In this document: positions 15,040 to 32,000 of the stretch, piece after piece
Layout of the letters: the number at the start of each line of letters is the position of its first letter
Numbering within the stretch: the stretch's first letter is position 1
NCBI GenBank assembly: GCA_963808965.1
Contig: CAWEHU010000013.1
Location: 30,672 to 62,671 of the forward strand
DNA length: 32,000 bases
Source: an uncultured Alphaproteobacteria bacterium
Lineage (GTDB): Bacteria; Pseudomonadota; Alphaproteobacteria; Acetobacterales; Acetobacteraceae
Direction: 5' to 3'
Program-made: the position numbers and the translations under genes
The notes under the pieces: generated by a model
What the model saw: the letters and a program-made list of their open reading frames with translations, nothing else
Databases searched by the model: none
What the model was told of the DNA's origin: nothing

Positions 15040-15052
15040 TGAGGACCGGGCG
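15027..15052. terminator. Weak hairpin between the convergent hisA/F-like gene and fae
   Basis: 7-bp stem CGCCCGG (15027-15033) / CCGGGCG (15046-15052) with a 12-nt loop. A-run on the plus side and T-run on the minus side, but not in canonical terminator geometry. It overlaps the stop codon at 15037-15039. Confidence 0.3.
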
Positions 15053-15064
15053 AAAAGTCGAGGC

Positions 15065-15574: not shown

Positions 15575-15675
15575 GAACGTTCCCCTCTGTCCTTCACGCC
15601 TCGGTTCCGCCCGGCCGGCCGGCACAGGCGGATGCGGGGCCAATTAGTGCCTGCCGCGCTGGCGCGATCAATAGC

Positions 15676-17384: not shown

Positions 17385-17387
17385 CTG

Positions 17388-18345: not shown

Positions 18346-19446
18346 ATCCCGACTCTCGCCAGAATTTCCGCCGCGCGGCTCCGAAGCTGCGCACGCGCCT
18401 GGTCCGCGTTGTCCGCCTCAGCGATCACCGTGCATAGCGGCGCATCTCTCGCGACCGGTTGGCCGGGCGGCTGCCGGTCCGCAGCCCAATCTGGCCAGAA
18501 GAAACCAGGCCTGAGGCGGAGCGCTGCGGGCGCATACACGACGGCAGCCGCCGCTGCGCGCTCGAACACTGGCGGACATGCGGCCAGCTCGCCGCGGCAG
18601 GCCTCGACATGAAGCCGGAACAGATCGGGATGACGGAAGAGGTCGAGCGTCGCGCCGGGCCGAGGATTGATCTCCAGCAGATCGAAACCCTCCGCGCCGC
18701 ACAAGGAAGTCCGCGCTGTTCAGACCGACGAGCCGCGTCTCTGGAACTATGCGCGCGACCGCGTCCGCCATCTCTCGAGGCCATCCGGGCCGACAACGTG
18801 GCCGGCCGCACCGCGCCGCCATACCGGAACGGATGGGCGGGTGTCGGGTCGGGCCATTGTTCGCTGAAGCCGAGCACGAGGGAGCGGTGTCCGTCGGCGA
18901 GGAACAGTGCGGAGACAGGCCTTCCTTCGGCGCGCTTTTGCAGATACCAGCCGCCCCGCTCGGCGAGAACCGGCTTTCTTGTCTGAACGTGAACGCCGCC
19001 CGATCCGCCACGCCGCTTCCAGAGCCAGCCAGTCTCGCGAGGCTCTTTCCACGCGATCTCGGGATGTGGGATGCCGAGCGTGCGGCAGAGCGCAGCGAAG
19101 TCGGCCGGAGCCTTCACACGCGCGATCGTGTCCGGCGTGTTGCCCAGCAGCGTGCGCCCGCGCGCCATCGCGGCGACCAGATTCGGACGGTCCTCGAAAC
19201 CGCTAGCCGTACACGATGCCCTCCACAGCCCGACCATCGGCCAGCCGGTCCAGCGCTTGCAATAGCGAAGCGCCCCGCGAATCCGCGCGAAAGGCTGCCG
19301 CGAACCTGGATGCTGTTCGCGGCAATTGCGCGCGTGTCCAGATCGCCGAACAAATCCGCGACAAGCGGAGCGTAGCCGGAGCGTCGCGCCGCGGCGGCGA
19401 GGGCGCGACCGGAGAGTGCGGCGATCAGCACCGCCGCGATCTTCAC
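18342..19446 (-). pseudogene. ATP-grasp protein of the H4MPT biosynthesis cluster, interrupted by four apparent +1 frameshifts
   Basis: The pieces lie in successive frames. 19446->~19275: (M)KIAAVLIAALSGRALAAAARRSGYAPLVADLFGDLDTRAIAANSIQVRGSLSRGFAG. ~19275->19205: ASLLQALDRLADGRAVEGIVYG. 19204->~18776: SGFEDRPNLVAAMARGRTLLGN...GGSGGVHV...PFRYGGAVRPATLSARMAS. ~18775->~18700: EMADAVARIVPETRLVGLNSADFLV. ~18700->18342: GAEGFDLLEINPRPGATLDLF...AEILARVGI*. The span is 1105 nt, which is 3x367+4. ATGA overlap with the mch start. Confidence 0.8.
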
Positions 19447-19455
19447 GCCAGCAGC

Positions 19456-20340
19456 TCACGCGCCAAGCGCGAACGCGTCGCGGAAATCGAAGCGCACCGG
19501 CTTCGTTGCTTCGATCATGCGGCGGAACAGGCCGAACTCGGTGCGGTATTTGATCTGGCCGATGGCCAGTGCGCCGATTCCGAGCGCTTTCGTTCCAGGC
19601 AGCGTGGCTTTGTCCGCCATCACGTCCAGCCCCTCCACGCCGGCGGGGGGGACGGCGTTCACGTCGGCGACTACGCGGAGACCGGACGCCTGACGCAGCT
19701 CGTCGGCGCTCAGGACCTGCACGCCTGCCCTCGCTGCGCAGAACGCGGCTTCGGCGTCCCGCAGCAGCGCGGCTTTCATCGCGCCGGTGCTCGCGTCCGC
19801 CGAACGCACGTTCACGCCGAAGCGCTTGCCGATCTCATCGGCGGCACGCGCCACGCGCTCCGGTCCGTCATGCCCGGCCAGCACCACTTGCGCGCCTTCC
19901 AATGCGGCGATCACGCCGGATGCGAAGCCGACCACACCCGTCGCCCCGAACACGACGACCTTCAGCCCGTCGAGGCCCCGCGCACCTTCGTCCCGCAGCA
20001 GCTTCTCGGTCCTGGCGACCATCGCCGCCGCCGTGGTGAAGGAACCGGACGGATCGGCGAAGAGCGAAATGACGAAGGGCGGCACCATCGCCTGCTTCGC
20101 CGCGTCCAGCATGTCGAGTGCCAGGATCGCGTCCTTGCCGCCGATGAACACGCCAGTTTTCACACCGTCCTTCGGGGGGCGCGAAAAGATCGCATCCTGC
20201 ACCAATCCCTGCACGTCCTGCCGCGCGACATCGCAATAGGGCAGCACCGCGTCGAAGCCGGCGTCCAACGCCATGTTCGCATCGAACGGGCTGACGTGCT
20301 TGAGCGGACTAAGCATGTGCAGGATGTGCTTGTCCGCCAT
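19456..20340 (-). CDS. mtdB: NAD(P)-dependent methylene-H4MPT dehydrogenase
   Basis: Track ORF, 294 aa, intact. ILHMLSPLKHVSPFDANMALDAGFD...IFSRPPKDGVKTGVFIGGKD...ADPSGSFTTAAAMVA...DVNAVPPAG...FDFRDAF is colinear with MtdB as I recall it. Confidence 0.92.
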   Translation of the reverse strand: MADKHILHMLSPLKHVSPFDANMALDAGFDAVLPYCDVARQDVQGLVQDAIFSRPPKDGVKTGVFIGGKDAILALDMLDAAKQAMVPPFVISLFADPSGSFTTAAAMVARTEKLLRDEGARGLDGLKVVVFGATGVVGFASGVIAALEGAQVVLAGHDGPERVARAADEIGKRFGVNVRSADASTGAMKAALLRDAEAAFCAARAGVQVLSADELRQASGLRVVADVNAVPPAGVEGLDVMADKATLPGTKALGIGALAIGQIKYRTEFGLFRRMIEATKPVRFDFRDAFALGA

Positions 20341-20362
20341 GGCGCCCGTCTCCTTCTCCCTC

Positions 20363-21313
20363 TTATCGGCCTGGCCGCATCATCACGGACGCTCCGCGAT
20401 TCAGCGCCTTGCAGACGCTGATGTCCAGACCCCCGACCCGCTCGCGTAGCGAGGTCGCTATCCGCTCGGCTTCCGCCTCGCCGCGCAGGAAAGCGAAGCC
20501 GGACGGTCCCCACGAACTTTGGCCGATCCCGGTCGCTCCTGCCGCGCGTGCGTGATCGAGCGCGGCGGCGACGCGCGGGCTGGTGAAGCGCGCACCCTGC
20601 GCGGGCGCGAAATGGTCTCCGGCGATGGCTTGCACCTCCGTCACCGCGGCCCCGAACGTTTCGAGATCGTCCTCGGCGAGCGCCGGTAACGCCTGCATCA
20701 GCACGAGCCTGCAAATGCGGGACGAAAGCCGGTCCGGAAGTGGCGCGAGCGCGGCGAAGGCCGCAATCTCCTCCGGCCCGGACAGCCCCTCATGAGCAGG
20801 GTCTTGCAGCAGCAGGATGCGCCAGTCATCCGGCACGGCCAAGCGGGAGAGCAGCGGTGGCGCACGCTCGCCCCCGCGCCCGCCGTCAACGACGAAGCCG
20901 CCTTGCTGGAACAGAAAGATGCCGATGCCCGAGCGATGGCCCCGCCCCAGCACCCGCGCATCCTCGCCGGGGTTCGCAGGCAATCCGTGCAGGCGGCGCA
21001 GGGCGGCGGCGATCCCGAGCGCGAGTTGCGTGCCCGATCCGAGTCCAGCATGCGCGCGGGATCGAGGACAGGACTGTCAGCGCGTGGCCGCCCCTGATGC
21101 CGAGATGCGCGGCGATAGCGGCGAGATAGGCGGCGGCGCGCGGGCTTCGGCGCCCTGCACGCGGTCTCGTTCGCGCGGCTGAGCCGGAGACGCGTTTCGG
21201 GCCTGTCGAGGGCATAGTCCGATGCTGCCGAACCGACGCCCGAGCGTGAAGCTGAGGTCGAGGAAGCCCAGGTGCAGCCGCGCGGTACACGCGACCTCGA
21301 CGGCTTCATCCAT
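20363..21313 (-). pseudogene. mptG: Beta-ribofuranosylaminobenzene 5'-phosphate (RFAP) synthase, interrupted by at least three frame changes
   Basis: N-terminus from ATG 21313: MDEAVEVACTARLHLGFLDLSFTLGRRFGSIGL (GHMP-like RFAP-synthase start). The next frame gives ALDRPETRLRLSRANETA. The next gives ..AAAYLAAIAAHLGIRGGHALTVLSSIP. The original frame then resumes with AHAGLGSGTQLALGIAAALRRLHGLPANPGEDARVLGRGHRSGIGIFLFQQGGFVVDGG... to the stop at 20363 (track ORF 20363..20983). Breaks lie at about 21214, within 21129-21162, and at about 21053-21057. Confidence 0.8.
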
Positions 21314-21426
21314 CGCGAGAGGATCGCCAGGCCGGCGGGCGGATGCCCGGCGGGTTCCGCGTTGCCTGGAGCATGATTTATGATCCACACTCGGTTGGCC
21401 GAGCGCAACCCCAGGGAGGCAAGCGC

Positions 21427-21810
21427 ATGACCGAGCGGCAGCCGGAGCACGCCTATTCCGAGCCCGAGATCGAAGCCCATCTGAAGCAGCATCTGCCGCA
21501 TTGGCGATTGGAGCGCGGCTGGATCCGGCGCACCTATCGCACGCACGGTTGGAAAGGCACGCTGATGGTCATCAACGCGGTCGGACATCTGGCCGAAGCC
21601 GCGTGGCACCATCCCGATATCACCGCCTCCTACGCCTGGGTGGAGGTTCGCCTCATGACGCACACCGCGAAGGGAATAACCGACAAGGATTATCAGCTCG
21701 CCGCGAAGATCGAGGAGGTAATTCAATGGCAGCCGGGCAAAGAGGGCGGCGCACTGGAAGGCACGCCAGCTAAGGACCCGCGCTTCGCCTACATCAAGTA
21801 CGACGATTGA
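21427..21810 (+). CDS. Pterin-4a-carbinolamine dehydratase (PCD/DCoH)-like protein
   Basis: Track ORF 21343..21810 trimmed to ATG 21427, with a GGGAGG RBS 7 nt upstream. ..HWRLERGWIRRTYRTHGWKGTLMVINAVGHLAEAAWHHPDITASYAWVEVRLMTH.. is the PCD core motif (E..HHPD). 127 aa. Confidence 0.85.
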   Translation: MTERQPEHAYSEPEIEAHLKQHLPHWRLERGWIRRTYRTHGWKGTLMVINAVGHLAEAAWHHPDITASYAWVEVRLMTHTAKGITDKDYQLAAKIEEVIQWQPGKEGGALEGTPAKDPRFAYIKYDD

Positions 21811-22898
21811 GCGACGCGGTTTCCGTCCGGGGTCGGCCTGCCTCGCTGGACGAAGGAGTAAGCGAAGCCGCGGCGATCCTCCGCCGCAGCCGTTGCGCGG
21901 TTATCGCCGGTGCCGGCACTGATGTGGCGGGGGCGGAGGCGGCGGTCTCGCTCGCCCGGGCCGTGGATGGCGTGTTCGATCACCTGCACGCCGACGGGGT
22001 GCTGCGCGATCTTGAAGTGATGGGCCAGGCGGGATGGATCGTCACGACGCCCTCGCAGGCGTGCGCGCGGGCGGATCTTGTTCTGCTGGTCGGATCAGGA
22101 TTGGACTCGGCTTGGCCGGGCTTCGTCGCGCGGCTTCGGCTGAATGGGCCGCCGCCGCTGCACCCGGACCGCTCGCGCCGAGTGATCCGGCTCTGTCCGG
22201 GAGAGGACGGGTTCGCGGGCGAGGCCGCCACCATCGGGGGAGAGCCGCGCGAGCTGCCGATCCTGCTTGGGGTCTTGCGTGCGCTTTGCGCCGGACGACC
22301 GCCGCGGGATGATGCGCCATTGCTGGGACAACTGAGAGACTGCGCACGCGCGCTCCAGGATGCGCGGTATGGAGTCGCGCTGTGGAGCGCCGAGCGACTC
22401 GATCCGCTCGCGATCGAGATGCTGTGCGGGCTCATCGACGATCTCAACGCGAGCACGCGCTTCGCCGGGCTGCCCGTGCCGGGGCCGGGGAACGCAATGG
22501 GTATCGCACAGGCGAGCGCATGGGCGAGCGGATTTCCGTTCCGGACTTCCTTCGCCCGGCAACAGCCCGCGCATGATTCCTGGCGCTTCGATGCGAGGCG
22601 CATGGTGGAGAGCGGGGAGGCGGACGCGGCGGTGTGGATCGCCGCTCTCGATCCCGCTGCGCCACCCTGGCGGCGGGCGCTTCCCACGATCGCGCTGGTT
22701 GCGCGCGATACCAGTTTTGCGTCATCGCCGGAGGTGCTTATCACCGTCGGCCGGCCGGGTCTCGACCATCCGGCCGTCCTGTTCGAGCAGGATCTCGGCG
22801 GGCTTGTGGCCAAGCAAGCGGCGGCAGCCAGCGCCGTACCCACGGTGGCGCACGTCGTGGGGCGGATCATTGAGGCGCTGGGAGCCGATCCGTGCTGA
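21807..22898 (+). CDS. fhcB: Formyltransferase/hydrolase complex subunit B (FwdB/FmdB homologue)
   Basis: Track ORF, 363 aa, TTG start in a TTGA overlap with the PCD stop. It sits at the head of the fhcB-A-D-C order, and length and composition fit FhcB. The call rests mostly on context plus general similarity recalled from memory. Confidence 0.8.
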   Translation: MSDAVSVRGRPASLDEGVSEAAAILRRSRCAVIAGAGTDVAGAEAAVSLARAVDGVFDHLHADGVLRDLEVMGQAGWIVTTPSQACARADLVLLVGSGLDSAWPGFVARLRLNGPPPLHPDRSRRVIRLCPGEDGFAGEAATIGGEPRELPILLGVLRALCAGRPPRDDAPLLGQLRDCARALQDARYGVALWSAERLDPLAIEMLCGLIDDLNASTRFAGLPVPGPGNAMGIAQASAWASGFPFRTSFARQQPAHDSWRFDARRMVESGEADAAVWIAALDPAAPPWRRALPTIALVARDTSFASSPEVLITVGRPGLDHPAVLFEQDLGGLVAKQAAAASAVPTVAHVVGRIIEALGADPC

Positions 22899-24507
22899 CC
22901 GTGCTACGGGGCGGGCGGATCATCGACCCGACCGAAGGCCGCGACGAACAAGGCGACCTCTGGTTCGAGAATGACCGTATCGTCCCGCCGCCAGCGGACG
23001 GTCGGAGGCCTGACACGGAGCACGATGTTTCCGGTGCCGTCGTGCTGGCGGGCGGGATCGACATCCATTCGCATATCGCGGGCACCAACGTGAACACGGC
23101 CCGTCTGCTCCTGCCGGAGCTACGCGCCGGCGGCGCATTGGAGGCCGTGCCGGTGGTAGAGGAGATCGGCCGGCTTTACATTGCCATGGGTTTTACCACG
23201 GTGGTCGAGCCCGCCATCACGCCGCACAATGCGTTGCAGGCTCATCTGGAGCTCGCGCAAATCCCGTTCATCGACACCGCGATCCTGACGGTTCTCGGCA
23301 ACGAGGACTATCTGCTGGAGCTGCTGCGAATCGAAAGAGAGCGCGTCTGCGATCGCCGACTACGCCGGGCGGATGCTCGCGGGCAGCAAGGGGCTTGGAC
23401 TGAAAGTTATCAACGCGGGTGGCTCCGCGGCCTTCAAGGAGAACGCGCGCAGCTTCGGGCTCGATGACGTCGTACCGCAATACGGCGTCAGCTCTCGTGC
23501 CATCGTGCGCGCGGTGCAGGAAGCCCGGGCCATTCTAGGCGTCCCGCATCCGGTGCATCTCCACTGCAACAATCTGGGGATTCCCGGCAACGTCGAGACC
23601 GCGCTCGCCACGATCGACCAGCTCGGCGACTTGCCGCTGCATCTCGCGCATCTGCAATTTTACGCCTACGGCACCGAGGGAGCGCGCGGCTTCTCCTCGG
23701 CCGCCCCTCGTCTTGCGGAGGCCGTCAAGGCGAACCCAAATGTTACCGCCGATGTCGGGCAGGTGATGTTTGGGCAAACGGTCACGATCTCATGCGACTT
23801 GATCCGCCAGTTCAACGGCCGCGCGCAGGCGCATCCCCGGAAATCCGTCATCATGGACGGTGACGGCAACGGCGGCGGCGTGGTGCCGTACCGGTATCGC
23901 CGCACCAGTTTCTTCAATGCGGTGCAATGGGCGGCGGGGCTCGAGCTGTTTCTGCTCATCGACGATCCGTGGCGGCTCTTCTTCACGACGGACCACCCGA
24001 ACGGCGCGCCGTTCACCGCATACCCGGATTTGTTTGCTCTGCTGATGAGCCGCGCGCTGCGTGAGCAGTGGATCGGGACGGTTCCGGCGGATGCGATGCA
24101 GGTTTGCGTCCTGCCTTCCCTTGCGAGGGAATATACGTGGCCCGAGATCGCGACCATGACGCGAGCCGCACCGGCCCGCCTGCTCGGGCTCGCGGATCGC
24201 GGCCATCTCGCACCGGGCGGACGCGCCGACATCGCGGTGTACCGGCCCGCAGCCCGACCTTGCCGCGACGTTCCGCCACGCGGCGTTGGTGTTCAAGGAT
24301 GGACGGCTCGTCGTCCGTGACGGGCGGGCGATCGAGCGGGTCCTGGGCCGTGCGCTCGCGATCGAGCCGGGATTCGACGCGGCGGCCGACCGGCGGCTCG
24401 CGGGGTGGTACGATCGGCTCTACGGAATCCCGCATACCGCCTTCGATGTGCCTGCGGACGCCACCGGCCGCGCCCTGCCGTTCGAGACGGTGCCATGCCG
24501 GGGTTGA
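22892..24507 (+). pseudogene. fhcA: Formyltransferase/hydrolase complex subunit A (FwdA-like amidohydrolase), interrupted by two apparent +1 frameshifts
   Basis: Three track ORFs lie in successive frames. 22892..23467 is credible to ..ILTVLGNEDYLLELL and includes GGIDIHSHI, the amidohydrolase metal motif. 23373..24320 carries upstream in-frame ESKESASAIADYAGR and then MLAGSKGLGLKVINAGG...HLHCNNLG...TTDHPNG... to ..ADIAVYRP. 24286..24507 continues QPDLAATFRHAALVFKDGRLVVRDG...FETVPCRG*. Breaks lie at about 23325-23340 and about 24246-24249 (CCC run). The span is 1616 nt, which is 3n+2. Confidence 0.88.
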
Positions 24508-25403
24508 TCAGGAACGGCGTCGCAGTCGACGACACTTTCGCCGAGGCGTTCGACATGCGGGCGACCGCGCTGGTGCTTACGGCCGGCACGTCGCACTGGG
24601 CGCGGCAGGCGGCCGTGACGATGACGGGGTTTGCCACCTCAATCATCGGCTGCGGCGTTGAAGCGGCGATCGATGGAGAGGTGGCCGAGAACGAGACCCC
24701 GGATGGCCGTCCGGGCGTGCGCGTCCTGCTATTCGCCGCCTCGACGGGCGAGTTGCAGAAACAGTTGCTGGCGCGCGTCGGCCAATGCGTTCTCACCTGC
24801 CACGATACGGCCTGCTACGCGGGACTCGAAGGCTCGGAGCCGCTTCGGCTTGGCGACGGACTGCGCTATTTCGGCGACGGCTGGCAAATCTCGAAGCGGC
24901 TCGCCGGTCGTCGCTATTGGCGCATCCCGGTGATGGATGGCGAGTTCGTTTGCGAAAGCACGACGGGATTGACAAAGAGCGCGGTCGGCGGCGGCAACCT
25001 CATCCTCCTGGGCCGCAGCACTGAGGCCGCCCGGCGCGCGGCCGAAGCGGCGGTGGCGGCGATCGGTGGCGTCCCGCACGCGATCACGCCGTTTCCCGGC
25101 GGTATCGCCCGATCCGGCTCGAAGATCGGTTCGAAATACAAGGCGCTCATGGCATCGACGAACGATGCGTTCTGCCCGACGCTGCGAGGAGTCGTGCAAT
25201 CCGCGCTCGATCCGGACGTGGAGGCGGTGCTGGAAATCGTCATCGACGGCCTAAGCCACGGCGCAGTTGAGGCGGCGATGCGGGAGGGACTCGCAGCCGC
25301 GGTCGCGCTCGGGCCGGAGCAGGGGGCCGCGCGGATTACCGCCGGGAATTATGGCGGCAAGCTGGGCCGGCATCATTTCCACTTGTCGCAACTGCTGCCA
25401 TGA
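24495..25403 (+). CDS. fhcD: Formylmethanofuran:H4MPT formyltransferase (Fhc complex subunit D)
   Basis: Track ORF 24405..25403 trimmed to ATG 24495, which overlaps the fhcA end. MPGLIRNGVAVDDTFAEAF.M.AT...MTGFATS.I.CGVEA...TPDGRPGV...RYWRIPVMDGEF...PFPGG..RSGSK.GSKYKAL.ASTNDAFCPTL...ITAGNYGGKLG is colinear with Ftr/FhcD. Confidence 0.93.
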   Translation: MPGLIRNGVAVDDTFAEAFDMRATALVLTAGTSHWARQAAVTMTGFATSIIGCGVEAAIDGEVAENETPDGRPGVRVLLFAASTGELQKQLLARVGQCVLTCHDTACYAGLEGSEPLRLGDGLRYFGDGWQISKRLAGRRYWRIPVMDGEFVCESTTGLTKSAVGGGNLILLGRSTEAARRAAEAAVAAIGGVPHAITPFPGGIARSGSKIGSKYKALMASTNDAFCPTLRGVVQSALDPDVEAVLEIVIDGLSHGAVEAAMREGLAAAVALGPEQGAARITAGNYGGKLGRHHFHLSQLLP

Positions 25404-26215
25404 CCGCGCTCCGCTTCGTGCTGCGGTTTCCACCTCCGATGCGGCTCGATCTGTCGCCGCTGATTCCGGAGCGCCTGGCCAGAATGGAGGCGAGCGCGAT
25501 CGATCGGATCGAGCTCGGCTCGGCTCGGGCCAGCGTGCGCGTCGGCGACGTGTTCCGTTTGCAAACGGGCGAGGCCTCGCGCGTGACGATCGAAGGCGGA
25601 TCGGAACGGTTCGACTTTCTCGGTGCCGAAATGAGCAGCGGCGAAGTGCTGCTGGATGGAGAGGCGGGCTATGCGGCGGGCAGGAGGATGGCCGGCGGGC
25701 GGCTCGAAATCCGAGGTGACGCCGGCGGTTGGGCCGGATCGGGACTGCGCGGCGGGACGGTGGAGATTTGGGGCGATGCGGGCGCGATGCTGGGGGCACC
25801 GTTCGCCGGGGAACGCGCCGGAATGGCCGGCGGCACGCTGATCGTGCGGGGAGGGGCAGGCGAGCGGGCGGGCGACCGGATGCGACGCGGCCTGATAATC
25901 ATCGAAGGGGCGGCCGGTGTTTGCGTGGGAAGTCGAATGCTGGCCGGCACGCTGGTCGTGTGCGGGGCCGCTGGGGCCATGCCCGGCTACCTGATGCGGC
26001 GCGGCACCCTGTTACTCGGGCTCGCCGCCCCGTTGCCGACTTTCGTGCCGACCGGAAATGTCGCCGCTTCGTTCCGAGGGCTTCTGGCCGGTGCTCTCGC
26101 CCGGTTCAGTTGGCCGGCTGCCCAACTCGCGGCTACCGCCGCGGAGCGGTACCTTGGAGACGTGGCGACGCTTGGGAAAGGCGAGATGGTCCTGGGGACG
26201 ACCGAGGCAGCCTGA
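25400..26215 (+). CDS. fhcC: Formyltransferase/hydrolase complex subunit C (FwdC-like beta-helix)
   Basis: Track ORF, 271 aa. ATGA overlap with the fhcD stop. Repeated G-rich beta-helix rungs (GGRLEIRGDAGGWAG, GGTVEIWGDAGAMLG, GGTLIVRGGAGERAG, RGLIIIEGAAG, GTLVVCGAAG). Confidence 0.9.
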   Translation: MTALRFVLRFPPPMRLDLSPLIPERLARMEASAIDRIELGSARASVRVGDVFRLQTGEASRVTIEGGSERFDFLGAEMSSGEVLLDGEAGYAAGRRMAGGRLEIRGDAGGWAGSGLRGGTVEIWGDAGAMLGAPFAGERAGMAGGTLIVRGGAGERAGDRMRRGLIIIEGAAGVCVGSRMLAGTLVVCGAAGAMPGYLMRRGTLLLGLAAPLPTFVPTGNVAASFRGLLAGALARFSWPAAQLAATAAERYLGDVATLGKGEMVLGTTEAA

Positions 26216-26308
26216 TCACGACACTTTTTGGCGAGAGCCCTGCCGGAAGCATCCGCCGCGCCTATCGTTGAGGAGGCAACGACTTGGCGTTCCGGCCGGG
26301 AGGCGGCG

Positions 26309-26521
26309 ATGAACATGGTCGACCTGATCGTGATGGTCTGTTCGCTTGCCGCCCCGAGCGTCTGCCAGGAACGGCACATGCTGTTTGAATTGCACGGCTC
26401 TCTCTACACCTGCATGTGGGAGGCGCAGCCATTCCTGGCGCAGTGGATCGGCGATCACCCCGATCTGCGCATCGCGAGCTTTCGTTGCGACTGGCCGGAG
26501 CGGGAGGACCGGAACGGCTGA
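26309..26521 (+). CDS. Small hypothetical protein (70 aa, four Cys)
   Basis: Track ORF 26228..26521 trimmed to ATG 26309, with a GGGAGG RBS 6-7 nt upstream. MNMVDLIVMVCSLAAPSVCQERHMLFELHGSLYTCMWEAQPFLAQWIGDHPDLRIASFRCDWPEREDRNG. The composition is non-repetitive and rich in aromatic residues, unlike the GC-shadow ORFs. Confidence 0.5.
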   Translation: MNMVDLIVMVCSLAAPSVCQERHMLFELHGSLYTCMWEAQPFLAQWIGDHPDLRIASFRCDWPEREDRNG

Positions 26522-26545
26522 GGAGGGAGGGAAGGCTGTCGCCAG

Positions 26546-27610
26546 TCAGCGCGAGTGCGTCCTGTGTACCAGTTGGTGGATGAAGCCGAGCTTCTTGATC
26601 ACCGCGGGCGAGATGACGAAGGGGTAGGCGTCCGCTAGCCCCATGCTGCGGTTCAGGCTGTTCATCGCGAAGGTGAGCGGCATCCAGGCATCCATGATCG
26701 TCTCGATATCCGGCGCGGCATGGGGGTCGAAATCGATCCTGGCTTCGAGCGCGCCCGTTTTGTCGGCGCGCGGATCGATCCGAAGGCCATAGGTGCTCGC
26801 CGTCTCCACCGTATCGATGATGTGGAGGTAGTGTGCCCAGGTTTCGGCGAAATCCTCCCAGGGGTGACTGGTCGCGTAGGCGCTGATGAAGTTCTCCGGC
26901 CAGTTCGCCGGGGCGCCTTCCGCGTAGTGCCTTTTCAGCGCCTCCCCGTAATCCTGGCTGTCGTCACCGAAAATAGCTCGGCAAGCCTCGAGCTGCCCGC
27001 CATCCCGGACCAGCACATCCCAGAAATGATGTCCGACCTCATGCCGGAAATGACCGAGAAGGGTGCGGTAAGGCTCGCCCATCTCGGCGCGCATCTTCTC
27101 ACGCTCGGCGTCGTCGGCCTCCTTCAGTGCAACGGTGATGACGCCGTTGTCGTGGCCGGTCAGCACCTTGGGTCCCGTAGCGGCCGGCGGGTCTTCGAGG
27201 AAGTCGAACGCGAGTCCGTGCTCCGGGTCCTCCTGGCGCGTGACGAGCGGGAGGTTGAGGCGGATCAGGGTGTAGAACAGCCGGTGCTTGGCCACTTCAA
27301 GCTTGCGCCACAGCTCCAGATTCTCGGGCTTCGAGAGGTCCGGGATCGTGCGGTTATGGCGACAGGCGGCGCAAAGCGCATCGCCGGAGTCCGCCGGCAC
27401 GAGCCAGTTGCACGCGCCATGCTCGGCGTTGGCGCAGAGCCGGAAACGCCCTGTTTCCGAGGCCAGCGCCCGCCAGGCCTCGCCCTCCGGTTCCAGGGCG
27501 GAGAGCGTGCTCGTCTCCGGCAGATAGCCGAGCGTATGGCCGCACTTCTCGCACCTGTGGTTCTCGAAAAACAGCAGTTGGGCGCAGTGCTGGCAGGTGA
27601 AGAGCTTCAT
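26546..27610 (-). CDS. Zinc-ribbon plus putative zinc metallopeptidase (HExxH) family protein
   Basis: Track ORF, 354 aa. N-terminal ribbon CQHC..(x10)..CEKC. A further Cys cluster CANAEHGACNW...CAACRHN. The catalytic-type motif is FRHEVGHHFWD with downstream HPWEDFAETWAHY. No signal peptide. Confidence 0.85.
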   Translation of the reverse strand: MKLFTCQHCAQLLFFENHRCEKCGHTLGYLPETSTLSALEPEGEAWRALASETGRFRLCANAEHGACNWLVPADSGDALCAACRHNRTIPDLSKPENLELWRKLEVAKHRLFYTLIRLNLPLVTRQEDPEHGLAFDFLEDPPAATGPKVLTGHDNGVITVALKEADDAEREKMRAEMGEPYRTLLGHFRHEVGHHFWDVLVRDGGQLEACRAIFGDDSQDYGEALKRHYAEGAPANWPENFISAYATSHPWEDFAETWAHYLHIIDTVETASTYGLRIDPRADKTGALEARIDFDPHAAPDIETIMDAWMPLTFAMNSLNRSMGLADAYPFVISPAVIKKLGFIHQLVHRTHSR

Positions 27611-27694
27611 CGGCGGCGTGACCTATCGCGGAAAGCAACGTAACGCGCGAGAAGCCGGCAGTTGCGGCTCCTAATCGGGTTCGCGGCCAAGCGA

Positions 27695-28303
27695 TCAGAA
27701 CCGGCGACGTGAGGGGGTGATCAGATTTCCGTCGCGGCCGACAAGATTGCCGTCCCGCCCAACGAGATTTCCATCGCGCCCGACAAGATCGGAGCGGCTG
27801 CTCATACCCCCGGTCATGTTGTTGTCGGCGTTGACCTCGTCGGCCAGCAGAACGTCGCTGAGCCAGCCGATCGTGATGTCGATCCGTACTGCGACATCGA
27901 GCTGATCCGCCGGCCACACGCGGACTTCTTTCGAGAACACCGCGTCCTTGAACTCGACGCCCATCTTGCTGAGCGTGATCGCGTCCTCATACCCGGCCAC
28001 GACCTCCTCTCCCTCGCCGTAGACCAGGAATACGGCGGGGGTCGACATCTTGTAGTAATTGCCCTGGTAGCTGAACCCGTAGATGCGGGCGAGCTTCTTC
28101 TCTTTGTCCAGCTCACTCTCCTTGCCAGCCTGGTTACGGAGAGCGGCAATCAGCGGATTGCTCGAAAACTTGTTCAGACCGAGATCTTTGATCTCAAGGC
28201 CGCCGAAGAGCCTGCCGAATAGTCTCACGGTGGCAGGAGCGAATAGGCCTTCGCCCAAAGGATCGGCATCTTTCTTTCCGCCCGTGGTGTCGTCGGATGC
28301 CAT
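27695..28303 (-). CDS. Hypothetical 202-aa protein with a C-terminal (LVGRDGN)x3 tandem heptapeptide array
   Basis: Track ORF. Strong AGGGAGGAA RBS about 10 nt upstream of ATG 28303. No signal peptide. Protein-like central region (ARIYGFSYQGNYYKMSTPAVFLVYGEGEEVVAGYEDAITLSKMGVEFKDAVFSKEVRVWPADQLDVAVRIDITIGW). The C-terminus reads SSRSD-LVGRDGN-LVGRDGN-LVGRDGN-LITPSRRRF*. Confidence 0.8.
   Translation of the reverse strand: MASDDTTGGKKDADPLGEGLFAPATVRLFGRLFGGLEIKDLGLNKFSSNPLIAALRNQAGKESELDKEKKLARIYGFSYQGNYYKMSTPAVFLVYGEGEEVVAGYEDAITLSKMGVEFKDAVFSKEVRVWPADQLDVAVRIDITIGWLSDVLLADEVNADNNMTGGMSSRSDLVGRDGNLVGRDGNLVGRDGNLITPSRRRF
27725..27787 (-). repeat. Three tandem 21-nt coding repeats (heptapeptide LVGRDGN) differing only at synonymous third positions
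   Basis: Read on the coding strand: CTT GTC GGG CGC GAT GGA AAT / CTC GTT GGG CGG GAC GGC AAT / CTT GTC GGC CGC GAC GGA AAT. Pairwise differences are 5, 2 and 5 nt, and all are synonymous. Confidence 0.9.
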
Positions 28304-28375
28304 GGTCGGCGTTCCTCCCTTTCACAACCACCTTGCTCGACGAAAGTTACAGCGACGGAAAGTCTCACGCCACTA

Positions 28376-29788
28376 TCATCCAACGGGCGCGGTCTCGGGC
28401 GTGGACCGATGATCGTGCGGCATCAACCGGCGCGCGATTAGGAATGCGCGTGGCGAACACGAACAGGCGTTGACCGGCTTGGCGCCGAGCGGCTCGCGGA
28501 AGCGCAGCGCTATCGGGCGCTTGTCGAACCGCCGCGGTGCGGGTGCCGGGACCTCGCCTGTCAGCAACGGCCGCGGGTCGATCCCGCGCCACAGGAAATG
28601 GCCGAGCAGCGCCGGCAGGTTCGGGCCTTGGCCAAGCCGGGCGGCGGCCTCCAGGAACTTCGCCGCGACCGCGTCGAAGCTCAAGCTCTCCGGCGGAATC
28701 GTCAGCATCACATGCGCCATGCACCGCCCCACGAGGTCGCGCGCGGCTGCGAGCGAGGCATGGAAGCCCTGCGTGAACCGGGCGAATGAGCGTGCCAACT
28801 CGTGGCGCACCATGCGCAAAGAGGCTGCCACCTCCTCGCGGGTCCAGCCGCGAGCGTCGGCGTCGGGAGGGATCAGCCCGCGTGCGACCAGCCCGTCCTG
28901 GTAGATTTCGACGAAAATGTCGAAAATCGCGCCGGTCAGCGGCTCGGCCAATGCGTGCGCGTTGCGATCGAGCCCGAGCGGGTCGATCCACTCGCCGTCG
29001 GGACCGAGCCTCAATCCCCCGACGTCGGCCATCGTCACGGTATTGGAGGCGAGCCGCACCTGCTCCTTGTCGGAATATTCCCCCAGCCGGTTGACCAGGT
29101 TCAGCACGTAGAGATTGCCGTCGGTCTGTTGCAGGAGGCGTTGCACCACTGAGGGAAAGTGCAGGGCTGCGATCAGCGAGACGAGGTCGGCAAATAACTC
29201 GTGGAAGGCGAGATAAGGGCCGTGAATCCGGTCCGGCGGCGGTGCGCCGACCTGCGAGAACAGGATGGCGTGTCCGGTTTCATGCGCGATCACATCGAAG
29301 TTTAGGCAGAAGAGCTGGCCGCGCCCGTAGCGATTGGCGATGATCCCCGCCTCCAGGAAGCCGGGACCGCAATGCGCGTTGCGCCAGCGCACCACCGGTA
29401 TCAACTCGAGCTGCGGCAGGAAGCTTGCGTGCCACCAGACGACCTGTCGCCGGAGATACAATTCCCAAACATCTAGCGTGTGTCGCATGGTGCCGTAGAG
29501 ATGTGCGGCAAGGAATTGCTCGGTGTCGACCGGAATGTAGTCGAAGTTTCCGCAACGATCCGGCAGGGCGGGCGCGAACATCGTGCCCCGATACGGCGGC
29601 ATGTAGGCGGGCGGGTCGTATTGGCTCTCCTTGTCCACTGCGTTCGCGACGTACATCGTCGCGTCCGAGGGTCCTGGACCGATCGTGCCGGCCCGGCGTG
29701 ACACGAGCACGAGCTCGGGCTCGGCATAGCCCTCCGCGTATTGCGGAAAAAGCCGGAACCCGGTCCCGTCCGGCCGGTGCCTGATCAT
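28376..29788 (-). CDS. Thermolysin-like (gluzincin) HExxH...E metalloprotease-family protein, no signal peptide
   Basis: Track ORF, 470 aa. FDVIAHETGHAILFSQVG is followed 23 residues later by AFHELFADLVS, which resembles the thermolysin HExxH...NExxSD arrangement. The ATG forms an ATGA overlap with the tfuA stop (29785-29788). Confidence 0.8.
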   Translation of the reverse strand: MIRHRPDGTGFRLFPQYAEGYAEPELVLVSRRAGTIGPGPSDATMYVANAVDKESQYDPPAYMPPYRGTMFAPALPDRCGNFDYIPVDTEQFLAAHLYGTMRHTLDVWELYLRRQVVWWHASFLPQLELIPVVRWRNAHCGPGFLEAGIIANRYGRGQLFCLNFDVIAHETGHAILFSQVGAPPPDRIHGPYLAFHELFADLVSLIAALHFPSVVQRLLQQTDGNLYVLNLVNRLGEYSDKEQVRLASNTVTMADVGGLRLGPDGEWIDPLGLDRNAHALAEPLTGAIFDIFVEIYQDGLVARGLIPPDADARGWTREEVAASLRMVRHELARSFARFTQGFHASLAAARDLVGRCMAHVMLTIPPESLSFDAVAAKFLEAAARLGQGPNLPALLGHFLWRGIDPRPLLTGEVPAPAPRRFDKRPIALRFREPLGAKPVNACSCSPRAFLIARRLMPHDHRSTPETAPVG

Positions 29789-31161
29789 CGTTCCCCTTCT
29801 CCGGCCGCCTCTGCTGCGGTCGGGTCAGTCTGCGTCATGTACAGATATTCGCGCCACACCGCCGTTTCCCAGGCGGCAGCACTGGGCCAGCCTTGCTCGC
29901 CGAGATGCGCGTTCAGCGATCGCGGCCGGGGGCGGCCCAGGCAAGTCTCGAAATACCAATCGAGCGCGGCGTCGAGTAGCGGTCCGTCGGGCGGCCGCCG
30001 AGCAGCCTTGATTGGCGCGAGAGCCGTCCGCTTGGCCTGAGCCCGCCGATGCAGGGCCGCAAAGCCTCCGGTTAGCCGCAAATGATCGAGCAACGCGGCG
30101 CGGAAGCCTGGCGGCTTCTCCCGGGCTGCACGCGCGAGCGCGGCCTCGCGCCGAAGGAGTGCCGCAAGCCCCGCTTCGTCTAGCGCATTCTCCGCGAGCC
30201 AGGCAGTCAGTTGTTCTCGCTGCCAAAGGCCGCGGGCGCGGCGGAAGCAATCGAGCTGCCGTCGAAGCTCCGCGTCGGAGACTGTCTCCGGTGCTGAAGC
30301 GGAAGCATCGAGCCGGCCGGTCACGGCACGCTCGCACATGCGCCAGGCATCCGGCTGGAGACGCAGTTCCTCCAGCACCGCGGACCCCTCCTCCGTATCC
30401 GGGTCCCCATCTTGGACCGAGGCGGTCCATCGCTCCCAGACCAAGGCACGCTCGAAACGGAAATCTGCCCGGAATGGAGCGGGCCGCTCGCGCAAGAAGG
30501 CCGTGAGAGCCCGTAGCATCGCCAGCGCATCGAGCCGCTTGCGCGCCACCCGTCCCGTCCGCAGCCATCCGGCGAAGGCGCGGGTGCCGTCGTTGCCGAG
30601 AATCTCCGGAGCGGCATCCGCCAGGCGCGTGAAACTGCGTTCTGAGAAGTGCAGGCACTTCATCCTCGCCGAAAGCGTGTCGCGCTGGGCGCGGGTCAGC
30701 AAGCCGGCCGCCTCCGCCGTCAGCAGCGTCTCGCGCAGATCGACCATCGCGTCGGAGAACGCCACGCTGCCTGCTGGGGCCGGCGCATGGATCACGGCGA
30801 CTTCGTCGTCATCCTCGAACGGCTCGTCGTAGCCGGGCCACTTTCCGTCGCGATAGGCTTCGTAGATCCGTCCGACGCCGCGCATCCCGAAACGGTCCAG
30901 TTCCGCGGCGCGCAGCGCGCCCATGCTCGCCCCGCCGAATACATGTACGCCCTCCGAAAGCGCCCAGAGGATTTCCCGGTGCCAGACGGAGGGGACGTCG
31001 AGGAACGCCCCGTCGATCAGGCCGATCGCCACCGGCCGATACGTCCTGACAGCGTGGAATAGGTCTCCTTGGCGGGCGGGGGGCAGGAAGAGGGCGTCGC
31101 TCTCACGCTCGGCCTCGTGCCGCGAGAGGCTGGGTCCGAGAAACACGACGGCGCTTACCAT
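29785..31161 (-). CDS. tfuA: TfuA-like protein with a ~230-aa C-terminal extension
   Basis: Track ORF, 458 aa. MVSAVVFLGPSL...PPARQGDLFHAV..RPVAIGLIDGAFLDVPSVWHREILWALSEGVHVFGGASMGALRAAELDRFGMRGVGRIY is the TfuA domain pattern. The start overlaps the ycaO stop (ATGGTAA, 31155-31161). Confidence 0.88.
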   Translation of the reverse strand: MVSAVVFLGPSLSRHEAERESDALFLPPARQGDLFHAVRTYRPVAIGLIDGAFLDVPSVWHREILWALSEGVHVFGGASMGALRAAELDRFGMRGVGRIYEAYRDGKWPGYDEPFEDDDEVAVIHAPAPAGSVAFSDAMVDLRETLLTAEAAGLLTRAQRDTLSARMKCLHFSERSFTRLADAAPEILGNDGTRAFAGWLRTGRVARKRLDALAMLRALTAFLRERPAPFRADFRFERALVWERWTASVQDGDPDTEEGSAVLEELRLQPDAWRMCERAVTGRLDASASAPETVSDAELRRQLDCFRRARGLWQREQLTAWLAENALDEAGLAALLRREAALARAAREKPPGFRAALLDHLRLTGGFAALHRRAQAKRTALAPIKAARRPPDGPLLDAALDWYFETCLGRPRPRSLNAHLGEQGWPSAAAWETAVWREYLYMTQTDPTAAEAAGEGER

Positions 31162-32000
31162 GCGCGGCTCGCCGCCCGGTGCGCGCGGGGGCCGGGCGTG
31201 TACTCGCCGCCGGGTGGCGTCCAGGGGCCTTCCAGCCCCGGCACGATCGCACGTCCGACCGGAACCCCGAACATCGGCCGGGTCAGATCGACCCAGGCGA
31301 CCTGCGGCATTCCGGCCTCGCGCAGCAGCGAAAGCGCCGTTTGCAGGTCTTCTCTGAGGGTCGCCCCGGCCCGACAGGGTGTCCCGTGGAAGTCCCGCGA
31401 GGCCGGGCCGCTCAGGAGATTACGAGCCGCCTCCTGGCGGTCCGCGTGAAGGGAATCGAGATAGCCTTGCTCGGCGAGGTCGTCGCGCGCCCCCGAAATG
31501 ACGGTCAGCCGTGCCTGTGCTGCCTCGGTGAGCGCGCGGGCGAGCGCCACATCCCGGTCGGGATGGCAACCGGAGCCAAGTTCCGGCTGTACCCGATCCC
31601 GTCCGGGAGCGGAGGCGGCAAGGCACAGATAAGCGGGCAATCCGATATCGGATGTAACATCCCAAATTCTGATGCGGACCGCGGCGGCGGCGAACATCGG
31701 CAGCAGCGCCGCGCTGATGCGGCCGTCGATGCTGGCGAGATCCAACACGCGCGCCTGCCGGGCCACTGCGGGGCCGGCGTGCCACAGCGCGACCGCATCG
31801 CGCTCCACCACTTCGCAGATTCCGTGCAGTGCAGCCTCGAGCCAATGATTGCCGGATGCGAGCCCGTTCGTGGTCGCCTGAAAGACCGGCGTGGAGCCGA
31901 TTTGCGACGACGCCGTATAGTCCGCGGTCACGACCTCATGCGGAACCCACAGCGGCTCGCCTGTCGCGAGATCGCGGCCCTCCAGCCACAGCAGCCGGCG
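31155..32000 (-). CDS. ycaO: YcaO-domain protein (3' part; gene continues past the right edge)
   Basis: Track ORF 31155..31931 extends in frame to the window edge. My translation of 32000->31932 gives RRLLWLEGRDLATGEPLWVPHEV. TTNGLASGNHWLEAALHGICEVVERDAVALW is the YcaO core pattern (SNG.A.G....EA...G..E..ERDA). It lies immediately upstream of tfuA. Confidence 0.9.
   Translation of the reverse strand, partial: RRLLWLEGRDLATGEPLWVPHEVVTADYTASSQIGSTPVFQATTNGLASGNHWLEAALHGICEVVERDAVALWHAGPAVARQARVLDLASIDGRISAALLPMFAAAAVRIRIWDVTSDIGLPAYLCLAASAPGRDRVQPELGSGCHPDRDVALARALTEAAQARLTVISGARDDLAEQGYLDSLHADRQEAARNLLSGPASRDFHGTPCRAGATLREDLQTALSLLREAGMPQVAWVDLTRPMFGVPVGRAIVPGLEGPWTPPGGEYTPGPRAHRAASRAW

Follow-up and report, generated by a model that had tools for sequence, protein, structure and literature searches.

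Gene content of the locus

The region analysed is a window of 32,000 nt (GenBank assembly GCA_963808965.1, contig CAWEHU010000013.1, positions 30,672 to 62,671 of the forward strand) from an uncultured member of the Acetobacteraceae (Alphaproteobacteria). As shown in Table 1, its last part carries five consecutive genes on the minus strand: ycaO, which runs off the window, tfuA, a gene for a 470-aa protein with an HExxH motif, a gene for a 202-aa protein ending in (LVGRDGN)x3, and a gene for a Zn-ribbon protein with a Peptidase_Mx domain. The last two genes follow after gaps of 72 and 84 nt. The five genes, both overlaps, both gaps and the heptapeptide tail had all been described in the original prediction, and each of them was confirmed.

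Table 1. Coordinates of the features within the 32,000-nt window.
Feature	Position	Strand	Length	Description
ycaO	31155..32000	-	281 codons	C-terminal part; open frame from 32000 down to a stop at 31155
ycaO/tfuA overlap	31161-31155	-	7 nt	ATGGTAA, read on the minus strand; tfuA start overlaps ycaO stop
tfuA	29785..31161	-	458 aa	TfuA domain at residues 1-223, then a ~235-aa C-terminal extension
tfuA/peptidase-like overlap	29788-29785	-		ATGA, read on the minus strand; peptidase-like start overlaps tfuA stop
Peptidase-like gene	28376..29788	-	470 aa	Zinc peptidase-like protein, predicted thermolysin fold
Repeat-protein gene	27695..28303	-	202 aa	Repeat-tailed protein, candidate substrate or pro-peptide
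Tandem array	27725..27787	-		(LVGRDGN)x3, 21-nt period
Peptidase_Mx gene	26546..27610	-	354 aa	Zn-ribbon + Peptidase_Mx; not part of the conserved cassette

The profile searches that had been proposed for the five proteins gave the following results. The partial YcaO matched Pfam YcaO (PF02624) at 3.8e-64, TfuA matched Pfam TfuA at 1.7e-40, and the 354-aa protein matched Peptidase_Mx (PF15887) at 3.9e-112 and Zn_ribbon_DZR_6 at 4e-35. The 470-aa and 202-aa proteins matched nothing in Pfam or NCBIfam.

The sequence beyond position 32000 was inspected in a contig (L086) that is 97.7% identical over 13.6 kb. There ycaO is complete (427 aa) and is separated by a 578-bp gap from a gene encoding a 1129-aa protein with Guanylate_cyc, AAA_16 and TPR_12 domains, that is, a class III nucleotide cyclase fused to a STAND ATPase and TPR repeats.

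The YcaO and TfuA proteins

The closest characterised relatives of both enzymes are the methanogen thioamidation pair. The full-length L086 YcaO matched TIGR00702 at 1.9e-59, above its cutoff. Its best NCBIfam match was TIGR03266, the McrA-glycine thioamidation YcaO (1.8e-69), but the score of 234.5 bits is below the curated cutoff of 365, and the best solved relative was MJ1094 (PDB 6pe3, 7e-30). TfuA matched NCBIfam ThioGly_TfuA_rel at 1.2e-53 and PDB 6xp8 at 2.3e-30 over residues 4-223, while its equivalog score (NF033432) of 181.7 bits is below the cutoff of 235.2. The C-terminal extension of TfuA matched nothing in Pfam or the PDB; a weak TIGR04500 hit was found at residues 286-344. The extension is absent from rhizobial cassette TfuAs, which are 240-255 aa in length.

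The 470-aa peptidase-like protein

The label thermolysin-like, given to the 470-aa protein in the original prediction, holds. H169, E170, H173, E197 and D201 are invariant in 24 homologues, and HExxH...[HQ]ExxxD is kept in 73 of 74 loci. The AlphaFold2 model (pLDDT 81, pTM 0.87) was compared with solved structures using Foldseek. The top 20 hits were M4/M36 enzymes, the best being thermolysin, vibriolysin and LasB (probability 1.0, best E 2.1e-4, TM-score 0.5-0.6 normalised by the target). UniRef and one GenBank record label homologues 'peptidase M4 family protein'. However, no Pfam Peptidase_M4 or M4_C or NCBIfam hit was obtained at E<=0.1, no PADLOC model matched, a profile search of PDB sequences found no peptidase, and identity to solved M4 enzymes (MEROPS M4) is about 12%. 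Proteolytic activity was not assayed. The protein has about 150 extra residues and no signal peptide, FTP or PepSY propeptide apparent by eye, and it is apparently cytoplasmic and dedicated to one neighbour gene.

The repeat-tailed protein

The 202-aa protein consists of a conserved N-domain of ~150 aa, an N-x-T-G-G junction, the three heptads and a basic end (LITPSRRRF). We found 115 homologues, and 555 clusters at 50% identity with E<=0.001. No family or fold match was obtained, and neither the protein nor its N-domain hit any Pfam or NCBIfam model, including the NHLP and Nif11 long-leader families, even at E<=10. In the AlphaFold2 model, blocks covering residues 21-100 average pLDDT 67-89, while the tail (residues 155-193) is below 50 and is predicted to be disordered.

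Tandem Repeats Finder gave a period of 21 with 3.2 copies for the array. Its three units are identical in protein but differ at 10 codons, all synonymous. Across the family, the tail is hypervariable between lineages in unit sequence and length (4-9 aa, 2-9 copies) but uniform within a protein. Adjacent units differ by 553 synonymous and 24 non-synonymous codons, indicating that each unit is under selection. Of 75 distinct units, 73 have R/K (nearly all units have one Arg or Lys), 70 have a hydrophobic residue and 1 has Cys. The tail behaves like a substrate or core region. Some cassette members have a non-repeating tail (Rlv3841 and loci L055, L062 and L071-73 of the related set).

Conservation of the cassette in related genomes

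Whether the repeat protein and the 470-aa protein co-occur with YcaO/TfuA in other genomes had been set out in advance as a test of the proposed system. YcaO, TfuA and the peptidase-like protein lie beside the repeat gene in 65 of 68 related genome loci with enough flank, which span Acetobacteraceae, Kiloniellaceae, Geminicoccaceae, roseobacters, Skermanella and others. The cassette is widespread, and the HExxH protein and the repeat protein are constant neighbours of YcaO and TfuA across many Alphaproteobacteria. The genome sample was drawn with one peptide pattern (LARIY[GA][FY][SA]Y), which favoured the YcaO-bearing type. The same cassette is on rhizobial plasmids, including R. johnstonii 3841 pRL11.

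A further conserved member, which had been missed because it lies outside the window, is the cyclase-STAND/TPR protein. A cyclase-domain ORF is linked in 71 of 81 loci and lies directly upstream of ycaO in class A loci. Cyclase catalytic residues are conserved in both architectural classes.

The Peptidase_Mx gene does not belong to the cassette. It is absent from all 84 other related loci and from the five rhizobial plasmid loci examined, and its only other occurrence is in L086. It is a lineage-specific neighbour, although no terminator-like site was found in the 84-nt gap and co-transcription in this lineage cannot be excluded.

A canonical short precursor gene just upstream of ycaO would have counted against the repeat protein as substrate, and none is conserved there. 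The cyclase gene and ycaO abut or overlap in two of the related loci, L001 and L002. The L086 gap is not conserved and has no Rfam match, and the corresponding gap in Ruegeria contains no ORF that looks like a precursor peptide.

About half of the rhizobial plasmid versions keep the cyclase, the peptidase-like protein and the repeat protein but lack YcaO/TfuA, as in Rhizobium TA1 and NXC14. In Leisingera the repeat protein and a cyclase-TPR gene remain paired without YcaO, TfuA or peptidase. Repeat tails occur in these Rhizobium and Leisingera proteins too. The repeats therefore do not exist for thioamidation alone, and 'thioamidation system' describes only one layer of the module.

To test for covariation, tail-unit distance was compared with the distances of the partner proteins. 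It tracked TfuA (partial r 0.31, p~0.001) and YcaO (0.25, p~0.0025) beyond shared divergence, but not the C-terminal TPR region (-0.10) or the cyclase/NTPase part (0.08). This test is exploratory, with n=29, approximate ORF starts and no phylogenetic correction.

Comparison with known systems

We found no paper or curated family describing the cassette, which agrees with the original prediction that the combination is undescribed. However, curated NCBIfam models already flag related cyclase proteins as companions of YcaO-type peptide systems.

In the thiovarsolin cluster of Streptomyces varsoviensis (varA-varY-varT; PMC6511847), a YcaO + TfuA pair likewise acts on a precursor, VarA, with a repeating core. 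Family members range from non-repeating to five repeats, and the products are very short thioamidated tripeptides ending in Arg (APR/GPR), comparable to the small-residue/Arg motif in most units here. VarA is a short precursor, whereas the candidate here has the large N-domain. The var cluster encodes no protease and host peptidases were invoked, whereas here a dedicated peptidase-like protein with a predicted thermolysin fold is part of the cassette, together with a cyclase partner. No homologue of VarO (haem-oxygenase-like), ATP-grasp or amidinotransferase is among the conserved neighbours, and the hosts are Alphaproteobacteria, not Actinobacteria.

NHLP-Burk TOMM clusters contain the 'TOMM system kinase/cyclase fusion protein' (TIGR03903; Haft et al. 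2010, PMC2887384), a very large protein with a cyclase-homology domain followed by a STAND/TPR-like region, which accompanies a YcaO-family enzyme cluster as the cyclase does here. The L086 cyclase protein aligns to model positions 283-1260 of 1267 at E 1.3e-139, but its score of 467 bits is below the cutoff of 705.75. The alignment starts after the N-terminal Ser/Thr kinase, which is missing and is replaced by a SAM-like domain in several loci. The partner enzymes in those clusters are a cyclodehydratase/docking fusion acting on NHLP precursors, while here they are TfuA-type. The role of the kinase/cyclase protein is itself unknown.

The methanogen McrA thioglycine system and E. coli YcaO acting on uL16 perform ATP-dependent backbone O-to-S exchange on a full-length protein. 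No mcr genes are present here, the substrate candidate is a dedicated repeat-tailed protein, and a protease-like protein and a cyclase are attached. In multi-core RiPP precursors (cyanobactins; fungal phomopsin and ustiloxin), several copies of one core lie in a single precursor, are released by proteolysis, and vary in sequence and number between producers. Here the units abut without recognition spacers, and the modifying chemistry and protease class are also different.

Discussion

The interpretation in the original prediction, a thioamidation-type system built on all five genes, is partly supported: four of its genes form the conserved cassette, the Peptidase_Mx gene does not belong, and the cyclase has to be added. 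The region is the 3' four-fifths of a five-gene cassette with the order cyclase-STAND-TPR protein, YcaO, TfuA, peptidase-like protein and repeat-tailed protein.

With moderate confidence, we read the tail as the substrate of YcaO/TfuA and of the protease, giving short peptides. In this view, the N-domain of the 202-aa protein would act as a large leader or docking domain. YcaO would activate a backbone amide in each tail unit with ATP and TfuA would supply sulfide, giving one thioamide per unit. The thermolysin-like enzyme would cut the tail, probably before the hydrophobic residue that starts each unit, releasing 5-7-residue peptides (here LVGRDGN or a trimmed form) that carry a small-residue/Arg motif. 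The cyclase protein would link the module to cAMP/cGMP signalling, as regulator or as sensor. Our data establish the gene content, the synteny, the conservation of fold and motif, the architecture of the tail and the selection on its units, whereas every chemical step, the cleavage sites, the fate of the peptides and the direction of coupling to the cyclase are inferred. No chemistry was tested, and there is no mass-spectrometry evidence for a thioamide or for released peptides. A folded 'leader' of 150 aa is unusual for RiPP precursors, and no transporter is conserved, so that no export route is known. Because the cyclase, peptidase and repeat protein trio also occurs without YcaO/TfuA, thioamidation is most likely a tailoring add-on to a protease-processed repeat pro-peptide module.

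A less likely alternative is that the tail is not released. The 202-aa protein would stay intact, as McrA and uL16 do when thioamidated (thioamidation of whole proteins has precedent, PMC13063428), and its identical repeats would act as a multivalent ligand that clusters TPR-cyclase molecules, since class III cyclases need to dimerise to be active. The peptidase would reset the signal by trimming the tail, and thioamides would tune binding or protease resistance. The pairing in Leisingera, the linkage of a cyclase to most loci and its conserved catalytic residues agree with this model, and uniform units fit repeated binding sites as well as they fit repeated cores. On the other hand, tail units show no covariation with the TPR region or the cyclase/NTPase part, non-repeating tails exist within intact cassettes, and a dedicated peptidase encoded directly upstream of the repeat gene, with its catalytic motif intact in all but one of the loci compared, fits processing better than occasional turnover.

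It is also possible, but unlikely, that the released peptides, thioamidated or not, are autoinducing ligands of the TPR sensor of the cyclase, in a peptide-to-cNMP circuit comparable in logic to TPR-receptor peptide signalling in Firmicutes. Peptide-sized units, a processing protease and a TPR-bearing cyclase are the three constant elements, STAND-TPR proteins are ligand-gated switches, and a Crp-family gene lies beside the cassette in L001. However, the units do not covary with the TPR region, the pro-protein has no signal peptide apparent by eye, and no exporter or oligopeptide importer is conserved. The cyclase could equally be a pathway regulator that senses something else, like LAL/MalT-type STAND regulators of biosynthetic clusters.

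An anti-phage or conflict system, with the cyclase-STAND-TPR protein as an Avs/Pycsar-like sensor and the other genes as its effectors, is very unlikely. The cyclase domain matches Pycsar PycC models (1.6e-17), the effector-NTPase-TPR order resembles antiviral STAND proteins, and the cassette sits on plasmids and in variable contexts. But only the generic cyclase domain matches, which is explained by shared class III cyclase homology; no PADLOC model matches YcaO, TfuA, the peptidase-like protein or the repeat protein, and no cNMP-binding effector is conserved nearby. A five-gene thioamidation operon, the gene set of the original prediction, in which both HExxH proteins process the repeat protein, rests on the shared strand, the short gap without a terminator-like site and the same arrangement in L086, and is contradicted as a general feature by the absence of Peptidase_Mx from the other loci.

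A broader reading, which is speculative and which we hold only tentatively, is that the underlying unit is not a thioamidation cluster but a previously unrecognised proteobacterial peptide-signalling module. It would consist of a cytoplasmic protease with the predicted thermolysin fold, a pro-protein whose tail is a cassette of identical 4-9-residue units, and a TPR (or STAND-TPR) nucleotide cyclase that reads the tail or its fragments and writes cAMP/cGMP, with YcaO/TfuA as an optional layer that thioamidates the signal. This would link backbone thioamides to second-messenger signalling for the first time, and would give the many orphan cyclase-TPR proteins of rhizobia and roseobacters a ligand class.

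Gene Content and Overlaps

The five minus-strand ORFs of the original prediction were all recovered at the stated coordinates, and both overlaps between neighbouring genes were read directly from the sequence. The two following gaps are 72 and 84 nt. The original prediction had named profile searches of the five proteins as a test, and these gave Pfam matches for YcaO (3.8e-64), TfuA (1.7e-40), and Zn_ribbon_DZR_6 and Peptidase_Mx in one protein (4e-35 and 3.9e-112). Neither Pfam nor NCBIfam gave any match for the 470-aa and 202-aa proteins. Three LVGRDGN heptads were found in the 202-aa protein, and Tandem Repeats Finder detected a period of 21 nt with 3.2 copies. The observation on which the prediction rested is confirmed.

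Coordinates of the features examined in the window and in related loci
Feature	Sequence	Coordinates	Strand
ABC-2 permease, ABC ATPase and Peripla_BP_6 binding protein	window	2463-6980	minus
Archaeal-type C1-transfer island	window	8786-26215	
Fused 4-HFC-P synthase (MfnB)/FolB gene	window	8786-10168	
DUF6513	window	11320-12627	
Hydantoinase_A	window	13262-14290	
MCH cyclohydrolase	window	16555-18345	
fhcA/D/C-like genes (FTR and GXGXG domains in L086)	window	23373-26215	
Region 97.7% identical to L086	window	18375-32000	
LVGRDGN heptads (three)	window	27725-27787	
Overlap ATGA	window	29788-29785	
Overlap ATGGTAA	window	31161-31155	
Open frame (ycaO, partial)	window	32000-31155	minus
578-bp gap upstream of ycaO, just beyond window position 32000	L086	6774-7350	
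Repeat protein and convergent cyclase-TPR gene	L070 and L075 (Leisingera sp. JC1 and ANG-M7)	9563-12268	
Trio without YcaO/TfuA	L087 (R. leguminosarum TA1 pRltTA1C)	6645-10932	
Apparently degenerate cassette	L057	8533-10387	
Long TfuA and YcaO in a different cluster	L089 (Paracoccus aminophilus pAMI4)	5751-8338	

Sequence beyond the Window

Exact-sequence look-ups of the TfuA protein and of P0001, the database copy of the 202-aa protein, found no record. The flank was therefore taken from L086, a contig reached through P0117, a 96%-identical homologue of the 470-aa protein. L086 has the same gene order as the window, including Peptidase_Mx and the fhc genes. Upstream of the window edge it shows the rest of ycaO (427 aa), a 578-bp gap, and a 1129-aa protein with Guanylate_cyc, AAA_16 and TPR domains.

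A short precursor gene just upstream of ycaO had been named beforehand as a finding that would refute the prediction, and it was sought there. The gap in L086 has 47–59% G+C, against about 66–70% around it, and contains a 120-aa ORF with a hydrophobic N-terminus and a 44-aa ORF, neither of which is conserved in other loci or has a family or Rfam match. In most relatives the cyclase gene abuts ycaO, and other loci leave no room for a precursor. The corresponding gap in Ruegeria has no ORF that looks like a precursor peptide; one short ORF there may be a transposase fragment, which was judged by eye only and not tested. A short precursor upstream of ycaO was thus rejected.

The rest of the window is an archaeal-type C1-transfer island, and the host therefore has tetrahydromethanopterin-linked formaldehyde metabolism. 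A link between YcaO/TfuA and the neighbouring fhc, mch and mfnB genes was considered because methanogen YcaO modifies McrA, but it was rejected because no other locus shares that neighbourhood. The ABC transporter genes at the far end of the window lie about 20 kb from the cassette, and there is no evidence of a link.

Synteny of the Cassette

The 202-aa protein has 115 homologues, and a profile search found 555 clusters at 50% identity with E<=0.001. A scan of species-representative genomes returned 80 loci, almost all from Alphaproteobacteria, including Acetobacteraceae, Pelagibius/Kiloniellaceae, Geminicoccaceae, Ruegeria, Leisingera, Skermanella stibiiresistens, Acidisphaera and Acidisoma. 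Conserved synteny across related genomes was another point on which the prediction had been staked. By tblastn, YcaO, TfuA and the 470-aa homologue lie directly upstream of the repeat gene, in the same order and on the same strand, in 65 of the 68 loci with at least 4.6 kb of flank, while Peptidase_Mx occurs in none of the loci. This genome sample was drawn with one peptide pattern that favours the YcaO type, so that 65 of 68 overstates the overall frequency. All-against-all clustering of ORFs found only one further widely conserved neighbour, a cyclase-domain protein, in 71 of 81 loci.

The cyclase protein comes in two forms. Class A is about 1100 aa, (SAM)-cyclase-AAA_16-TPR, and is encoded immediately upstream of ycaO. 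Class B is about 590–640 aa, cyclase-(TolB_N-like)-TPR, and is encoded just downstream on the opposite strand. Both classes keep the two metal-binding Asp residues and the Asn/Arg pair of class III cyclases. In 13 roseobacter loci a GNAT acetyltransferase gene lies next to the cyclase-TPR gene, about 2.7 kb downstream of the repeat gene. Thiovarsolins are N-acetylated, so this could be relevant, but it could equally be inherited synteny within one family.

The cassette is rearranged in three loci. In L024 and L027 the repeat gene lies between the cyclase gene and ycaO, and in L036 ycaO-tfuA is inverted downstream of the repeat gene, yet the genes stay together despite the reshuffling. Locus L057 appears to carry a degenerate copy, in which the peptidase homologue is only 27% identical and lacks the HExxH...ExxxD motif, and the tail of the repeat protein reads WRQGLWWRQGVWRRQGLWW, which looks like a frameshifted array.

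The Repeat Protein

Homologues of the 202-aa protein share a ~150-aa N-domain and a conserved N-x-T-G-G junction, followed by a tail of tandem units, and many end in a basic stretch. The units include heptads (LVGRDGN, LVGRDSG, LVGRDAN), hexads (LVGRSD, LVGRAD, LSARAD, LTGRGD, AYGGGK) and pentads (VSGAR, VSGAK, GGGKV). The copy number is 2–9, and a minority of tails do not repeat. Within a protein the units are nearly identical, while between lineages both sequence and length change.

At the DNA level the units are old. Over about 55 distinct arrays, adjacent units differ by 553 synonymous and only 24 non-synonymous codons, and the array of the window has 10 synonymous and 0 non-synonymous differences. 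Uniformity is therefore maintained by selection on each unit and not by recent duplication. Among 75 distinct units, 73 contain Arg or Lys and 67 contain exactly one, 70 contain a hydrophobic residue, and 67 contain Gly. Only one contains Cys, which argues against thiazoline chemistry. The residue before the basic one is Gly, Ala or Ser in 62 of 79 cases.

The AlphaFold2 model has moderate to good confidence for most of residues 21–100 (10-residue blocks average pLDDT 67–89) and a tail predicted to be disordered, with pLDDT below 50 from residue 155. The N-domain model has no significant match among solved structures and no Pfam match even at E<=10, and its fold stays unassigned.

The 470-aa Thermolysin-like Protein

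Residues H169, E170, H173, E197 and D201 of the 470-aa protein are invariant, and the motif HExxH...[HQ]ExxxD is kept in 73 of 74 loci. The AlphaFold2 model (pLDDT 81, pTM 0.87) matches thermolysin, vibriolysin and LasB with probability 1.0, although sequence searches found no peptidase family. No signal peptide or propeptide is evident by eye. Thermolysin-type enzymes prefer a hydrophobic residue at P1′, and that preference fits cleavage before the Leu, Val or Met that begins each unit, which is an inference only. Distant relatives of this protein (25–37% identity over part of the length) were found outside Proteobacteria, in plasmid hits from Bacillus mycoides, Hymenobacter (two hits) and Deinococcus and in a Nostoc record; their neighbourhoods were not examined.

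YcaO and TfuA

The closest characterised relatives of both enzymes are the methanogen thioamidation enzymes. For YcaO these are TIGR03266 (1.8e-69) and MJ1094 (7e-30), and for TfuA they are NF033432 (1.2e-53) and 6xp8 (2.3e-30). All these scores are below the equivalog cutoffs. According to Liu et al. 2021, as cited in PMC8939145, TfuA hydrolyses thiocarboxylated ThiS to supply sulfur and also raises the affinity of YcaO for its substrate.

The C-terminal extension of the window's TfuA matches nothing in the PDB or Pfam and has only a weak TIGR04500 hit. It is absent from rhizobial cassettes, and it is present in an unrelated cluster of Paracoccus aminophilus (L089), where a long TfuA (450 aa, aligned over 98% of the window's TfuA) and a YcaO sit with an ABC/FtsX transporter, an RND adaptor and an alpha/beta hydrolase, but with no peptidase or repeat protein. 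The extension is therefore not specific to this cassette, and the idea that it is the substrate-recognition domain of the cassette was dropped.

Variants with and without YcaO/TfuA

Rhizobial plasmids carry two architectures. The first, AAA/cyclase - YcaO - short TfuA - peptidase - small protein, is seen in R. johnstonii 3841 pRL11, R. phaseoli R630 and Mesorhizobium WSM1497. In strain 3841 the small protein has the N-domain of the family but a non-repeating tail. The second, cyclase-TolB_N-TPR - peptidase (42% identical to that of the window) - repeat protein, has no YcaO or TfuA, and is seen on one strand in R. leguminosarum TA1 (L087) and Rhizobium sp. NXC14 (L092). The tail here reads ...SGGLSRSGGALSRSGGVMSRSGG.... 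In L087 a 110-aa hypothetical follows, and in both loci the trio sits between a LacI/sugar-ABC block and, further downstream, acetyl-CoA carboxylase/5-oxoprolinase genes. By identity bands, about 52 and 49 plasmid records carry the two types, respectively.

The two Leisingera genomes (L070 and L075) keep only the repeat protein, with (SGAKV)x6-7, and a convergent cyclase-TPR gene. YcaO, TfuA and the peptidase are absent within 10 kb, and were not sought elsewhere in these genomes. Upstream lie a CN_hydrolase and an Orn/Lys/Arg decarboxylase. The constant core is therefore cyclase + repeat protein, usually with the peptidase, and YcaO/TfuA is a frequent add-on.

Covariation of Tail Units with the Encoded Proteins

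In an exploratory analysis, tail-unit distance was compared with protein distance in 29 class A loci, controlling for the mean divergence of the other proteins. The small n, approximate ORF starts and lack of phylogenetic correction should be borne in mind. The result supports an enzyme-substrate link for YcaO/TfuA and gives no support for recognition of the units by the TPR region.

Partial correlation between tail-unit distance and protein distance in 29 class A loci
Protein	Partial r	p
TfuA	0.31	~0.001
YcaO	0.25	~0.0025
Peptidase	0.17	~0.04
Cyclase/NTPase part	0.08	not significant
C-terminal TPR region	-0.10	not significant

Discussion

The interpretation in the original prediction, an undescribed thioamidation-type system formed by all five genes, is supported only in part. 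The cassette is real, widespread and undescribed, but Peptidase_Mx is not among its conserved genes. Our best reading, which we hold to be about as likely as not, is that the tail of the repeat protein is the shared substrate of YcaO/TfuA and the peptidase. In this view YcaO/TfuA would install one thioamide per unit, the peptidase would excise the units to give short peptides, and the cyclase would act as regulator or sensor. The gene arrangement, the sequence conservation and the selection on the units are results of the analysis, whereas the chemistry is inferred throughout and none of it has been shown.

Among the alternatives, it is possible, though doubtful, that the tail stays attached and acts as a multivalent regulator of the cyclase. 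It is somewhat less likely that the peptides are the ligands of the TPR region, for which no covariation with the units was detected. A defence system is improbable, since PADLOC matches only the generic cyclase domain. The five-gene operon including Peptidase_Mx is the least likely of these readings.

The nearest characterised system is that of thiovarsolin, in which YcaO/TfuA act on a precursor with 0–5 repeats and give thioamidated APR/GPR tripeptides, with no protease in the cluster (PMC6511847). The class A cyclase protein aligns to NCBIfam TIGR03903, the 'TOMM system kinase/cyclase fusion protein', at 1.3e-139, but it is below the cutoff and lacks the kinase. The class B protein weakly matches TIGR04510, the 'putative peptide modification system cyclase'. 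Haft et al. 2010 noted the large kinase protein beside NHLP-Burk TOMM clusters without assigning a role (PMC2887384). Cyclase/STAND companions of YcaO clusters have therefore been flagged by curators but not explained. No paper that we could search describes the present combination, and the two central proteins have no family model. The cassette is best placed within the repeat-precursor thioamidation theme, with a possibly new peptide/cyclic-nucleotide signalling core underneath.

YcaO/TfuA pairs are very common in Proteobacteria. One survey assigned 70% of non-redundant candidate thioamide clusters to that phylum, with over 500 in Rhizobium, and stated in 2021 that every TfuA-YcaO thioamidated peptide characterised up to then came from Actinobacteria (PMC8120280). 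The present analysis gives one large proteobacterial group a concrete substrate candidate that standard precursor-finding would miss, because it is a 200-aa 'hypothetical protein'. The cassette occurs in culturable, genetically tractable hosts, namely R. johnstonii 3841 (pRL11), R. phaseoli, Ruegeria and Leisingera, Skermanella stibiiresistens and Aliidongia dinghuensis, which makes a test by mass spectrometry straightforward. The natural YcaO-less versions in sister Rhizobium plasmids provide a built-in comparison for what the thioamide adds. If the cyclase link is functional, it would connect ribosomal peptide modification to cyclic-nucleotide signalling.
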